This document shows, piece by piece, positions 7,210-10,336 of a stretch of DNA of 64,000 nt (within the stretch, counting starts at the first letter, position 1; the number at the start of each line of letters is the position of its first letter). The notes under the pieces were generated by a model, which did not search any database, had not been told where the DNA came from, and worked only from the letters and a program-made list of their open reading frames with translations. Where the stretch lies: assembly GCA_963701965.1 (NCBI GenBank), contig OY969695.1:2688001-2752000 (forward strand). Direction: 5' to 3'. The position numbers were made by a program, and so were the translations under genes. This DNA comes from an uncultured Gemmatimonadales bacterium. Lineage in GTDB: Bacteria; Gemmatimonadota; Gemmatimonadetes; Gemmatimonadales; Gemmatimonadaceae.

Positions 7210-7824
7210 ATGGCCGAAGTCGCGCTGAAGCGGGTCGCCCCGAAATGGACCACCATGGAGGATTCGACGGTTGTCGCGTCCTTCCTGGCTGGTGATGAGC
7301 GGGCGTTCCAAATACTCGTCGAGCGGTACCAGACGCGCCTGCTCAACTTCGTGTTCCGGACGATCGGTGACCGGGAGAAGGCGGAGGACTTGGTGCAGGA
7401 GGTGTTCATCCGGGTGTACCGGCATTTACACCGGTTCGACCGCGCCAAGAAGTTCTCCACCTGGGTGTACACGATCGCCTCGAATCTGGCGAAGAACGAG
7501 CTGCGCAATCGCTCGCGAAATCCCCTGGTGCTGTTCCAGACGATCCGCCGGAATTGGGAGGACGAGGACCGTCCCCTGCAGTTCGAGGATCCGGCGTCGC
7601 GTCCCGACGATCTGTACCGCAAGCGCCATCTCCGGGAGCTGGTCGAGGCCTCGGTCGCGCGGCTGCCGGAGCATCACCGGCAGGTCTTCATCCTGCGCGA
7701 GCTCGAGGGCAAGTCGTACGAGGAGATCGCCGAGATCACGTCCTGCAACCTCGGCACGGTGAAGTCCCGGCTCAACCGGGCCCGGACGTCGTTCGCCGAC
7801 ATTATCGCGCCGGCACTGCGCTAG
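7210..7824 (+). CDS. ECF RNA polymerase sigma factor (RpoE/SigW-like)
   Basis: AEDLVQEVF, FSTWVYTIASN, LRELEGKSYEEIA, GTVKSRLNRAR. Confidence 0.93.
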   Translation: MAEVALKRVAPKWTTMEDSTVVASFLAGDERAFQILVERYQTRLLNFVFRTIGDREKAEDLVQEVFIRVYRHLHRFDRAKKFSTWVYTIASNLAKNELRNRSRNPLVLFQTIRRNWEDEDRPLQFEDPASRPDDLYRKRHLRELVEASVARLPEHHRQVFILRELEGKSYEEIAEITSCNLGTVKSRLNRARTSFADIIAPALR

Positions 7825-7840: not shown

Positions 7841-7872
7841 CTAGAGCTCCGCGCAGCGGAGCTCTGTCCAAC
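7841..7872. repeat. REP-like palindromic repeat, copy 1
   Basis: CTAGAGCTCCGC-gca-GCGGAGCTCTgtccaac; related copy at 38468-38497. Confidence 0.55.
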
Positions 7873-7950
7873 TGAGTTGTTCCCGCAGGTGCGGCTCTTA
7901 TGCCCCCTGCGGGAACCCTCAGGGGGGCGCCCGGGTATGTCCCGCCTATC

Positions 7951-8550
7951 ATGGACTGTGGCACGTTCCGCGAAAATCACGCGGCATTCTTCGATAACGC
8001 GCTAGACGAGCGCGCAATGGCCGCCATGCGCGCCCACCGCGCCGAGTGTGCGGCCTGCGCCGCGCACGATACGATCGTACGGCGGGCGTTGTTGCTAGTC
8101 AGAAATCTTCCGACCATTGAGCCGTCGCCGCAATTTGCCGCGCGGCTCGATGCGCGTTTGCGGCAGGTCGCGCATGCCGAGGGCCGGCGCAACGTCGTGG
8201 CCGGTCCGGGGCTGACCTCGTTCGCGACGGCCGCGGCGGCGCTCATCGCGGCCGGCTACATCGTGATGGCGGCGTTGGGTAGTGTGGAGACGGCGCGCGC
8301 GCCGGAGTTGGCGTTGTCACCCGTGGTGGTCACCGCGCCCGTCGACTTGACCGCGCGGCCACTCGACCCGGATTCGGAGCTGTTCCCCGCGAGCCGGCTG
8401 CCGGCGACGCCGACGTCGCCCATGGTGAGCCCCGCGATCGTGGCATCGGTGTCCATGGGCATGCCCGTGTGGCCCGCCGCGCTGCTCGCCGCCCAGGCAC
8501 CCATGCACTTCGCGGCGTCGGAGTTCTCGCTCGTCAGCCTCGGACGATAG
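7951..8550 (+). CDS. Anti-sigma factor, zf-HC2 domain plus TM helix
   Basis: MDC...HRAECAAC (Hx3Cx2C), a central hydrophobic helix, downstream of the ECF sigma. Confidence 0.85.
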   Translation: MDCGTFRENHAAFFDNALDERAMAAMRAHRAECAACAAHDTIVRRALLLVRNLPTIEPSPQFAARLDARLRQVAHAEGRRNVVAGPGLTSFATAAAALIAAGYIVMAALGSVETARAPELALSPVVVTAPVDLTARPLDPDSELFPASRLPATPTSPMVSPAIVASVSMGMPVWPAALLAAQAPMHFAASEFSLVSLGR

Positions 8551-8776
8551 CCCGGACTGGGTCTCGGCCAGTGAGATCGCCGCCTACGCGTACTGTGGGC
8601 GCGCCTACTGGCTGGAACGCGTCCGCAACATAAAGACCGACGACACACGACGCGCCGCCGGCGTGCGGGCCCACGCGGGACACGGTGCCCGGGTGGCGTG
8701 GGCGCGGATACTGTTCCGCCTTGGCGTCGCCGCTCTGCTCGTCCTGATTTTCCTGATCTGGCGGCGCGTGTCGTGA
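8549..8776 (+). CDS. Small Cas4 N-terminal-motif protein with a C-terminal TM helix (start codon missing in this assembly)
   Basis: Open frame SPDWVSASEIAAYAYCGRAYWLERVR...AAGVRAHAGH...ILFRLGVAALLVLIFLIWRRVS*. No ATG/GTG/TTG between the in-frame TGA at 8426 and the motif. One G added to CGATAG (8545-8550) gives an ATGA-coupled start MSPDW. Confidence 0.65.
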   Translation, partial: SPDWVSASEIAAYAYCGRAYWLERVRNIKTDDTRRAAGVRAHAGHGARVAWARILFRLGVAALLVLIFLIWRRVS

Positions 8777-9276
8777 TCGCGCTCGTCGGCGTCGCGGTTC
8801 TCGCTCTCGTGCTCTTCGCGTGCGCATGGGCGGTGGGACGGACCACCGGTGTCCGGGCGCCGGTGGTGACATCCGACGTGAGGGACGAAGGGGGCCCGAC
8901 GTTGCTGGACCCCACGTCGGGATTGCGAGGGCGTCCCGACTACGTGGTGCGCGAGCGCGCCGGGCTGGTGCCCATCGAGGTCAAGCCGCTCCGGCGCGCC
9001 AGCGTCCTCTATGATTCGGATCGGATGCAGTTGGCGGTCTATCTGCTGCTGCTCCGCGCCGTCGAGCCGACCCGCTTCGCGGGGTTCGGCCGCGTGCGCT
9101 ATGCCCGGGCGGCGTTCGTGGTGACGTTGACCGCGGCGCTGGAACGCCAGTGCCTGGAGCTTGCGGGCCGCGTGCGGGCCGCCCGGCACGCGGCCGACGT
9201 GCACCGGACGCACGACGTGCCGGCCAAGTGTCGCGCGTGCGCGGTGCGTGCGGCGTGTGGCGAAGCGTTGGTGTAG
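8773..9276 (+). CDS. Cas4-like PD-(D/E)XK nuclease, C-terminal part, with N-terminal TM helix
   Basis: GTG start overlaps the previous TGA; GRPD...IEVK, QLAVY, C-terminal CRACAVRAAC (CxxC-x5-C). Confidence 0.82.
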   Translation: MIALVGVAVLALVLFACAWAVGRTTGVRAPVVTSDVRDEGGPTLLDPTSGLRGRPDYVVRERAGLVPIEVKPLRRASVLYDSDRMQLAVYLLLLRAVEPTRFAGFGRVRYARAAFVVTLTAALERQCLELAGRVRAARHAADVHRTHDVPAKCRACAVRAACGEALV

Positions 9277-9286
9277 CTTATTGGCC

Positions 9287-10336
9287 ATGCCGCCGTCGAC
9301 GGAGCGCGCGCTGCGCGCCGCGATCACGCGCCGGACGTTCGAGCCGGTGTACTACCTCCACGGCGATGAGGATTTCCGCAAAGACGAGGCGGTGGCGGCG
9401 ATCGTGGCCGCAGCCGTCGATCCCGCGTTGCGGGATTTCAACGTCGAGATCCGGCGGGGCGCCAATGTCGACGGCGAGGTGCTGGAGACGCTGCTCGGGA
9501 CCCCGCCGCTCATGTCGGACCGGCGCGCGGTGGTCATCCGCAATGTGGCAGCGCTCAAGAAAGACGCGCGGGGTGTGCTCGACCGGTATCTCGAACATCC
9601 CGCCTCCGATGCCGTCGTCGTCCTGGTCGCGGTTGCCGGGGGCAAGCCGGACAAGGCGCTCGTCGACCGGGCGGCGGCCATCGATCTCGGCGCGCTGACC
9701 GGGGACCGGCTCGGCGATTGGATCACGCGGCGCGCCGAGTCGCTGGGCGTCACCATCAGTGCCGAGGGTGCGGCGCTGCTGCAGGATGGGGTGGGCAACG
9801 ATCTGGGGCAGCTGGCGGCCGAACTCGACAAGCTGGCGTCCTACGTCAACGCCAGCGACACGCGCGTCATTGACGAGCGCGCGGTCTCGGCGATCGTCGG
9901 CGTGGTGCGCGACGAAACCCTGGGGCGCCTGCTCGATCTGGTGGCCGCGCGCGATGCGGCGGGAGCGTTGGTCGTGCTCCCGCAGGTGTTGGCGTTGCCG
10001 AAAACCACCGCGGTGTCGATCGTCATGGCATTGACGACCCAGACGCTGGCGCTGGCCTATGCGGCGGCGGGTGGTGGGCGGTCGGCTGGGGAGTTTTTTG
10101 GACTGTTGAAGGACACCGGGGCGTTCCCGGGTCGGGCGTGGGGGGAGGCGGTGTCGGCGTGGGTGAAGGCCGCGCCGGCGTGGAGCGAGCCGGCGCTGGG
10201 CCGCGCGCTCGATGCATTGTTGGCGGCGGATGTCGCGCTCAAGGAGACGCGGGTGTCGGACGACGAGCAGATTCTCGTGTCCCTGATCTTGAGATTGTGC
10301 GCCGATGTGTCGAGGCGCGAAGGGAGAGCCGCATGA
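9287..10336 (+). CDS. holA: DNA polymerase III subunit delta
   Basis: PVYYLHGDEDF, RDFNVE, TPPLMSDRRAVV, GNDLGQLAAELDKL, ADVALK. Confidence 0.9.
   Translation: MPPSTERALRAAITRRTFEPVYYLHGDEDFRKDEAVAAIVAAAVDPALRDFNVEIRRGANVDGEVLETLLGTPPLMSDRRAVVIRNVAALKKDARGVLDRYLEHPASDAVVVLVAVAGGKPDKALVDRAAAIDLGALTGDRLGDWITRRAESLGVTISAEGAALLQDGVGNDLGQLAAELDKLASYVNASDTRVIDERAVSAIVGVVRDETLGRLLDLVAARDAAGALVVLPQVLALPKTTAVSIVMALTTQTLALAYAAAGGGRSAGEFFGLLKDTGAFPGRAWGEAVSAWVKAAPAWSEPALGRALDALLAADVALKETRVSDDEQILVSLILRLCADVSRREGRAA

Follow-up and report, generated by a model that had tools for sequence, protein, structure and literature searches.

A Cas4-type nuclease predicted to be divided between two membrane-anchored polypeptides, one of them without a normal start codon, in a Gemmatimonadaceae genome

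Two overlapping open reading frames (ORFs), designated ORF1 and ORF2, were analyzed in a 64,000-nucleotide stretch from an uncultured bacterium of the family Gemmatimonadaceae (here genome G000; 5.12 Mb in a single contig, C1, 95% complete), the whole stretch, or window, being G000:C1:2688001-2752000. Together, ORF1 and ORF2 would encode a single Cas4-type nuclease as an N-terminal and a C-terminal half (N-half and C-half), and a membrane helix is predicted in each half. The two halves very probably form an obligate heterodimer with both nuclease parts facing the cytoplasm, the split corresponding to a helical hairpin opened at its outer loop. An initial annotation, made from the letters of the DNA, had already proposed a Cas4-like iron-staple nuclease distributed over two membrane-anchored genes whose products must pair, and this proposal was borne out: the motifs of the two ORFs tile the single model TIGR00372, and a membrane helix is predicted in each.

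All the motifs named in that annotation are present where it had placed them in ORF1 and ORF2 (Table 1). ORF1 lies in a reading frame that stays open between 8429 and 8776, with the sequence ...DWVSASEIAAYAYCGRAYWL...G..AH..., the conserved part of ORF1 beginning at the D-W encoded at 8555. Both halves were recognized by profiles. ORF1 matches positions 2 to 42 of TIGR00372 (E value of 0.005, 16.7 bits) as well as the Cas4 models of PADLOC, and ORF2 matches positions 53 to 178 (E value of 1e-11, 44.9 bits) and passes PF01930 (30.8 bits against a cut-off of 22.7), Cas4 and PDDEXK_1 being its only Pfam matches. Since the two ORFs tile one model, the motif match exceeds chance. The set of four cysteines typical of Cas4, one N-terminal and three C-terminal, is complete only across ORF1 plus ORF2. 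In the latter, the catalytic residues D56, E69, K71, Q86 and Y90 were invariant in 32 of 32 aligned homologs, and the CxxC-x5-C motif was found in 146 of the 150 best family representatives. For its part, ORF1 provides a cysteine and a histidine that align with two residues of Pcal_0546 (Table 1; alignment through the A5 profile of ORF1-type sequences, with the offset in residue numbering counted by hand). Thus, ORF1 would contribute to both the iron-sulfur (Fe-S) site and the catalytic site, His94 of Pcal_0546, equivalent to His62 of SSO0001, having been proposed as a ligand of the catalytic metal (PMC4176176). Lysine and arginine were richer on the nuclease side of the ORF1 helix in 31 of 32 homologs and on that of the ORF2 helix in 28 of 32; from this bias and from hydropathy, both nuclease parts are predicted to lie on the cytoplasmic side.

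The AlphaFold2 (AF2) model of ORF2 had a mean predicted local distance difference test score (pLDDT) of 92, and its best Foldseek matches were Cas4 chains (7MI5, 7MI4 and 8D3Q; E values of 3e-5 to 1e-4). Comparison with the full Cas4 fold rests on a natural fused homolog, P0177, rather than on the ORF1-ORF2 pair. The model of P0177 (pLDDT 91.5, predicted TM score 0.87) contains a hairpin formed by helices 41-86 and 96-129, and its residues 5-273 superpose on Cas4 7MI4 with a Z score of 19.3 and a root mean square deviation of 2.7 over 178 residues. Many C-half helices were placed on the first helix of the hairpin by the sequence alignment. The same fold class, with Z scores of 12 to 15, comprises the iron-staple nuclease domains of AddB, AdnA, Dna2 and Exo5, and ACE1. 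The equivalog cut-off of TIGR00372 (65 bits) was reached by neither half, while three fused homologs exceeded it with 87 to 95 bits. By motifs and fold, the pair belongs to the Cas4/DUF83 family (PF01930), and it is neither a CRISPR Cas4 nor a single soluble chain.

The split is widely conserved. Among 110 related loci (L002-L116 minus five duplicates of the same genome, near-identical contigs being kept), 90 showed a separate, adjacent N-half. In the remaining 20, the N-half lay farther upstream (2 loci), was joined in one frame through a frameshift (2 loci), was cut by the contig end (6 loci) or was absent (10 loci, six of which are decayed copies of a mobile-element clade). Three candidates for true fusions, L038, L039 and G121, were rejected as products of frameshift or decay, with a scrambled ORF1 helix. 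A survey of 401 family genomes (including the unpublished G153, on which no claim rests) yielded the C-half in 44, the N-half in 41 and both in 40; once the divergent adjacent N-halves of G291 and G354 were added, both halves were present in 42 of the 44 genomes with a C-half. At a threshold E value of 1e-10, profile searching gave 601 clusters; the best 150 of these included 114 C-halves with one helix and 20 fused proteins, and in 17 of the 20 the halves were joined by 2, 4 or 8 predicted helices. Thermoplasmata members (P0154, P0176, L157 and L171) carry eight membrane helices within the nuclease domain.

A scan of the Genome Taxonomy Database (GTDB) with alignment A4, which was chosen after the broader alignment A3 had yielded no conserved stretch for this purpose, returned about 600 stretches, of which the best 80 loci were analyzed. 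They belonged to Chloroflexota, Methanotrichaceae and other methanogens, Thermoplasmata, one member of the Syntrophobacterales and one of the Acidobacteriaceae, a sample biased toward Chloroflexota and archaea by the single motif of A4. Sixty were split, nine were fused and 11 had no adjacent N-half. An unlinked N-half was present in all six genomes tested among these 11, in one case megabases away on a closed chromosome. Nothing indicates more strongly that the enzyme needs both of its subunits than this retention of an unlinked partner of 75 amino acids (aa). Conservation of the gene pair, which the initial annotation had named as a point to check, is seen both in the related loci and in GTDB. 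That annotation had taken single fused ORFs among the homologs as evidence against its proposal; such fusions do exist, in 20 of the 150 representatives and 9 of the 80 GTDB loci, and most loci are split. Its idea that assembly of the halves serves as a regulatory gate was not supported, given that natural single chains with the same helices occur, some of them in the clade of the window copy. Because of these single-chain forms, the split is better described as a break in the hairpin loop than as a demonstrated switch.

Two sets of observations weigh against an obligate pair. No N-half was found in G156 (76% complete) or G310 (91% complete), both of which carry ORF2. Furthermore, Pcal_0546 and SSO1391 could still cut after losing the cluster (PMC4176176), so that ORF2 may keep some activity alone. 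In G156 (L104; G156:C20:279753-283235), ORF2 is intact at the anti-sigma-holA site, ORF1 is absent, and the N-half was not found elsewhere in the genome. In a sample of 301 genomes of the phylum, strong matches were confined to the source family; 13 genomes with weak ones (E values of 1e-11 to 1e-18, mostly in frames of 500 to 700 aa), probably CRISPR Cas4, were left uncounted. Searches of 72,556 plasmids, of 50,697 phages and of viral contigs gave no match. Databases either list the small half as a hypothetical protein or overlook it, and for this reason the enzyme reads there as truncated.

No ATG, GTG or TTG codon precedes the motif in the ORF1 frame, in agreement with the initial annotation, which had noted the absence of a start codon in the assembled sequence. 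It had also suggested that one G was missing from the assembly. This repair is unsupported, because the same start-less junction (the anti-sigma stop codon followed by C-GAC-TGG, with ORF1 in the +1 frame) recurs in separately assembled relatives: it was found in four of five same-genus genomes (G001, G003, G004 and G005) and in six metagenome contigs, G002 having instead a spacer and a GTG. ORF1 is moreover under purifying selection; among the start-less relatives its ratio of nonsynonymous to synonymous substitution rates (dN/dS) was 0 to 0.34 at dS values of up to 1.6, with no stop codons. It is hardly credible that the split is a product of decay, with ORF1 being a pseudogene or owing its form to a faulty assembly. 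The lack of a canonical start and the decayed copies in mobile elements speak for it; it is opposed by the recurrent junction, by selection at dS above 1 with no stops, and by the occurrence of the split in two domains of life.

Silent sites were frozen toward the end of the anti-sigma gene, where one of the last eight codons varied compared to 18 of 21 upstream (Fisher's exact test, P = 0.0005, the sequences not being independent), and the frozen stretch begins at the GGAG of the candidate ORF1 start (Table 1). Read from the TCG at 8531, ORF1 begins x-SASDDSPDW, resembling the N termini MPASNDW and MSPSNDW of relatives that start normally. The conserved start-less junction, the dN/dS values and the frozen silent sites together point to noncanonical initiation. 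The conserved ATC of S-E-I was discarded as a possible start, as the upstream W-x-[ST]-A-S-E is conserved with silent changes; ATC is the only near-cognate codon shared, and the conserved stretch begins earlier, so that translation would enter upstream of it. In-frame ATG and GTG codons lying 60 to 65 codons upstream in G005 were discarded as well, other relatives having no such codon. In a tree of 25 anti-sigma-linked loci, a clear start was lost in separate branches, the +1 branch of the window having a support of 82; in the other losses the near-cognate codons at the coupling position are an ACG directly after TGA, a CTG over TGA, an ATA over TAG (also with a GTG just before the motif) and an ACG in L022.

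We consider it probable that ORF1 is translated weakly from a noncanonical codon in the 3' end of the anti-sigma gene, with TCG 8531 as the best candidate, that ORF2 is coupled to it through GTGA, and that little enzyme is made. Several points count against this view. TCG is not a recognized start codon. Shine-Dalgarno motifs are rarely used in G000 (23 of 198 genes versus a background of 5.8%). The silent variation in control lineages was 4/8 and 5/8, and 1/8 against the pooled 9/16 is not clearly different (P = 0.08). Finally, dN/dS between G000 and its relatives was higher for ORF1 (0.35 to 0.68) than the values above (ORF2, 0.31 to 0.41). Alternatively, and whatever the function of the enzyme, ribosomes ending the anti-sigma gene might shift by +1 near the stop codon and produce an anti-sigma-ORF1 fusion, a mechanism that we regard as rather doubtful. 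It would explain the absence of a conserved in-frame near-cognate start, the survival of the +1 register after a 3-nucleotide (nt) insertion in G000, and the rare codons (AGA and CGA), the stop codon followed by C and the frozen silent sites at the junction, and a weakly hydrophobic anti-sigma segment (mean Kyte-Doolittle [KD] value of 1.65) could bring the C terminus back to the cytoplasm. Against it, no codon pair permits re-pairing of the tRNA in all variants (CGA-TAG versus CAC-TAA), covariation at the junction RNA was seen in only 1 of 26 pairs, supporting no conserved structure, and in other start-less branches ORF1 lies in frame 0 or -1, with ACG, CTG or ATA at the coupling position. 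Because of these last branches, re-initiation fits better than three kinds of recoding, and weak noncanonical initiation is favored over the +1 shift.

Table 1. Positions of the two nuclease ORFs, their diagnostic residues and flanking features in the window
Feature	Position	Strand	Remarks
ORF1, N-half of nuclease	8531..8776 (start inferred)	+	+1 frame relative to anti-sigma; about 75-81 aa
Candidate ORF1 start (inferred): GGAG (8520-8523), 7 nt, in-frame TCG (8531-8533)	8520..8533	+	Invariant in 11/11 start-less loci
First Fe-S Cys of ORF1	8594..8596	+	Invariant in 32/32; aligns with Cys64 of Pcal_0546 (4R5Q)
His of G-x3-H in ORF1	8672..8674	+	Invariant in 32/32; aligns with His94 of Pcal_0546 (= SSO0001 His62)
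Predicted C-terminal transmembrane helix of ORF1	8702..8758	+	Mean KD 2.44; nuclease side inside
ORF2, C-half of nuclease	8773..9276	+	167 aa; GTG start overlaps TGA of ORF1 (GTGA)
Predicted N-terminal transmembrane helix of ORF2	8773..8847	+	KD 2.83; AF2 helix at residues 2-25
RecB-type motifs PD (D 8938), ExK (E 8977, K 8983) and QhxxY (Q 9028, Y 9040)	8935..9042	+	Invariant in 32/32
CxxC-x5-C, three C-terminal Fe-S Cys (9229/9238/9256)	9229..9258	+	Invariant in 32/32
Extracytoplasmic function (ECF) sigma factor	7210..7824	+	Pfam Sigma70_r2/r4_2 and TIGR02937 above cut-off; context, likely heads the transcript
zf-HC2 anti-sigma	7951..8550	+	Pfam/NCBIfam profiles; last ~10 codons overlap inferred ORF1 start region
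TAGCTT, TANNNT hexamer 7 nt before holA ATG	9274..9279	+	Likely holA's own leaderless-type promoter (inferred)
holA (context only)	9287..10336	+	TIGR01128, 152.8 bits versus cut-off of 80

The pair stands outside CRISPR, as had been annotated. A scan of G000 for periodic repeats gave eight regions, all of them head-to-tail tandem repeats with periods of 55 to 85 nt and no unique spacers, and therefore no CRISPR array, and cas1 (PF01867) was not found in this 95% complete genome by a search that matched 7 of 14 named genomes as a control. The neighbors are also those that the initial annotation had listed, namely, the ECF sigma and zf-HC2 anti-sigma genes upstream and holA downstream. No terminator-like site was found on the + strand between the sigma gene and ORF2, so cotranscription is plausible and the pair may be carried on the ECF transcript at this site, a link that is local. 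The C-terminal segment of the anti-sigma protein, VASVSMGMPVWPAALLA (8400-8500), is the weakly hydrophobic one referred to above; it is kept in all aligned relatives and could be a second membrane segment. A single palindromic element resembling repetitive extragenic palindromes lies at about 7842-7880, between the sigma and anti-sigma genes, and is similar to units of tandem arrays near C1:4,078,000 and 4,117,000.

In 8 of 8 other family genomes with both genes in the locus, the anti-sigma gene is followed by holA with no pair between them, directly in seven and with about 1 kb between in G017. The junction is thus old, the pair having been inserted into it later, and holA seems to have retained a TANNNT hexamer of its own; hexamers similar to TAGCTT precede holA in several relatives. 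Of 906 crudely called G000 genes, 154 have a TANNNT hexamer 5 to 9 nt ahead of their ATG, compared to 1 to 11 per position elsewhere, and Shine-Dalgarno motifs are rare, as noted above. From these sequences, leaderless-type starts look common in the source organism, holA being among them.

In a tree of 90 C-halves, the Gemmatimonadaceae-type copies formed one clade (support, 0.965) among those of Chloroflexota, with two-helix fused forms inside it. Judging from this tree, the Gemmatimonadaceae-type copies would have been acquired horizontally. Three contexts occur in the clade: beside holA; with genes for a lipid A acyltransferase, an ABC permease and a class V aminotransferase; and in a mobile group. 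The last is represented by 18 metagenome loci in which the pair adjoins genes for a MobA/VirD2 relaxase and NikA/MobC, and eight family genomes of this group (G134, G373, G294, G291, G354, G310, G133 and G017) were inspected. Near the pair, PDC-S60, a type I methyltransferase and AbiEi were found in G373, TIR and HsdM in G294, integrase, SNF2, PDC-M41B, NADAR or Schlafen in G291 and G354, and VirB4 in G310, while G133 and G017 had no defense or mobile-element neighbors at the locus. The pair of G134 (L275; G134:C163:6470-10951) lies directly beside a cyclase of the cyclic oligonucleotide-based antiphage signaling system with a helix-turn-helix and CapP regulator pair. A mobilizable element (L030-L073 and L087; e.g., L064:314-3423) comprises the relaxase, NikA/MobC, an HTH_17 protein and the pair; several of its copies have lost the N-half or carry it frameshifted, and the nearby cargo includes HEPN_AbiU2. 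In Anaerolineae-type loci (L191:3948-8740 and 23 further ones), a PRK14562-family gene, whose product we take to be translin-like, recurs upstream of the N-half; SSB and DUF3467 precede it, and NAD kinase and RecN follow. In Methanotrichaceae-type loci (L148:5897-7297 and five others) the pair is followed by a gene for a secreted protein, by eye resembling a micrococcal-type nuclease, which had no Pfam or NCBIfam match at the thresholds used.

According to the reading that we prefer, the halves would come together on the cytoplasmic side of the inner membrane to give one Fe-S enzyme, which, by inference from the Cas4 family, would cut single-stranded DNA in a metal-dependent manner (PMC4176176). 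The weak start of ORF1 inside the 3' end of the anti-sigma gene and the GTGA coupling of ORF2 would keep the enzyme dose low, and the tether would keep the nuclease off the chromosome and at the site where phage, conjugative or transforming DNA enters. We put at about 0.5 the probability that such a membrane-tethered nuclease degrades foreign DNA at entry. The proposal draws on the analogy with SNIPE, whose inner-membrane anchor prevents self-cleavage (PMC13190303), on the island contexts with their defense and mobile-element neighbors, on a patchy, horizontal spread (C-half in 44 of 401 family genomes; clade nested in Chloroflexota), and on the lack of matches in the phages, plasmids and viral contigs searched. 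A number of observations weigh against it. Most copies lie among housekeeping genes, and the neighbors recurring in GTDB are SSB, NAD kinase, RecN, HisS, RseP, CdsA, Trm5 and TIM. Only seven of 88 neighbors from 22 GTDB loci matched PADLOC at 1e-25, apparently as cross-hits of domains that are common in general (methyltransferase, AAA/SMC, subtilase and GlgB). The copy in the window occupies a housekeeping junction itself and is retained in five of five same-genus genomes, and the dN of ORF2 (0.07 to 0.17) was about one to two times that of holA for the same pairs (0.08 to 0.10), giving no signal of an arms race. The island neighbors may reflect only the vehicle that carried the gene. Lastly, it is stationary phase, and not virus, that induces the soluble Solo-Cas4 of Methanosarcina mazei (PMC12501428).

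The main rival, which we hold to be possible and not more, is a housekeeping role, in which the same heterodimer would trim or turn over, at the membrane, single-stranded DNA or RNA that belongs to the cell itself, acting on repair intermediates or processing taken-up DNA for recombination or nutrition. The housekeeping neighborhoods of Chloroflexota and archaea, including SSB and RecN in Anaerolineae, argue for it, as do the few credible defense neighbors in the 22 GTDB loci, the retrieval of about 600 GTDB stretches by one motif, and ORF2 rates close to those of holA, with stability within genera. It agrees poorly with the failure to find the gene in 357 of the 401 family genomes searched, with horizontal acquisition and decayed copies in mobile elements, and with the island contexts of one clade; moreover, a membrane tether would presumably hold the enzyme away from most chromosomal lesions. 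Service to integrative mobile elements, in which the pair would shut out a second incoming strand or act in processing during transfer, with chromosomal copies as domesticated leftovers, seems unlikely: the relaxase and NikA/MobC adjoining the pair in 18 metagenome loci, VirB4 in G310 and integrase in G291 and G354 are in its favor, but the searches of plasmids, phages and viral contigs gave no match, and the deep branches in Chloroflexota and archaea are chromosomal. Less probable still is the view of the initial annotation that the split is a switch, the nuclease awaiting a signal before it assembles, in this case envelope stress acting through the ECF sigma factor. Cotranscription with the sigma gene is plausible, the unlinked halves of some Chloroflexota would permit separate control, and ORF1 supplies a histidine of the catalytic site. 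Nevertheless, fused and split forms are interleaved, the halves are translationally coupled at the window locus, and the suggested link to envelope stress or holA was not supported, the anti-sigma-holA junction being found with no pair in 8 of 8 relatives and the pairs of other lineages lying in unrelated contexts with no ECF link.

Taken at its broadest, foreign-DNA degradation at the membrane would make these proteins a widespread, undescribed defense family of bacteria and archaea, namely, a membrane-embedded Cas4, in one chain or two anchored halves, that destroys DNA crossing the inner membrane. In Gemmatimonadaceae its dose would be limited by repeated loss of the start codon, here with translation starting at a codon that differs from AUG in two positions, or with +1 recoding off the anti-sigma gene. 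We advance this generalization tentatively and consider it doubtful as a whole. The family is nonetheless broad, with about 600 clusters (E value of 1e-10 or below) and a similar number of GTDB stretches in Chloroflexota, methanogens, Thermoplasmata and Gemmatimonadaceae, and its build is distinctive, with predicted membrane helices within the nuclease domain and Fe-S and catalytic metal sites apparently shared by two small membrane proteins. If the membrane-guarding role is true, it would be a second, independent SNIPE-like solution. A conserved gene that is under selection and has no normal start also offers a natural test case for noncanonical initiation or recoding in bacteria.

Compared with described members of Cas4/DUF83 (PF01930 and TIGR00372; SSO0001, 4IC1; Pcal_0546, 4R5Q; type I-C Cas4, 8D3L; Cas4-Cas1, 7MI4), the pair consists of two polypeptides and carries an insertion of two predicted membrane helices behind the G-x3-H helix. 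It differs from CRISPR Cas4 in that its genome has neither cas1 nor an array, and from single soluble Cas4 in that it comprises two ORFs, each with a hydrophobic helix. The location outside CRISPR loci is shared with solo-Cas4 (Hudaiberdiev 2017, PMC5704561), for which a monophyletic group in many Chloroflexi and solo copies in Anaerolinea, Caldilinea and Aciduliprofundum were reported. These solo copies may include C-halves or fused forms of the split family; the accessible main text of that paper does not contain the words "split," "fission" or "transmembrane," nor do its supplements contain "membrane." Likewise, neither "membrane" nor "split" occurs in the accessible text of the M. mazei paper (PMC12501428). 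In the accessible literature, with subscription journals and bioRxiv supplements outside the scope, no description of a split Cas4 or of membrane helices inside Cas4 was found. ACE1 is a Cas4-family enzyme acting in defense outside CRISPR (PMC12094033). Like the AddB, AdnA, Dna2 and Exo5 domains, it shares the fold class of the pair's family, but these enzymes are soluble and partnered with Argonaute or a helicase, whereas no such partner recurs beside the pair, and no helicase appears among its recurring Pfam-named neighbors. In contrast to AddAB, AdnAB and Dna2, the family is not fused to a helicase, 114 of the 150 representatives being C-halves with one helix. SNIPE (PMC13190303) is a single chain with GIY-YIG and DUF4041 domains, unrelated to Cas4 (a term absent from its accessible text), and the analogy is functional only; the pair has neither domain, and its inner-membrane anchor and cytoplasmic nuclease are predicted from hydropathy and charge. 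New at this locus are the Gemmatimonadaceae branch, the settings of this branch in islands and mobile elements, the unlinked halves and a small subunit that is conserved although it has no normal start.

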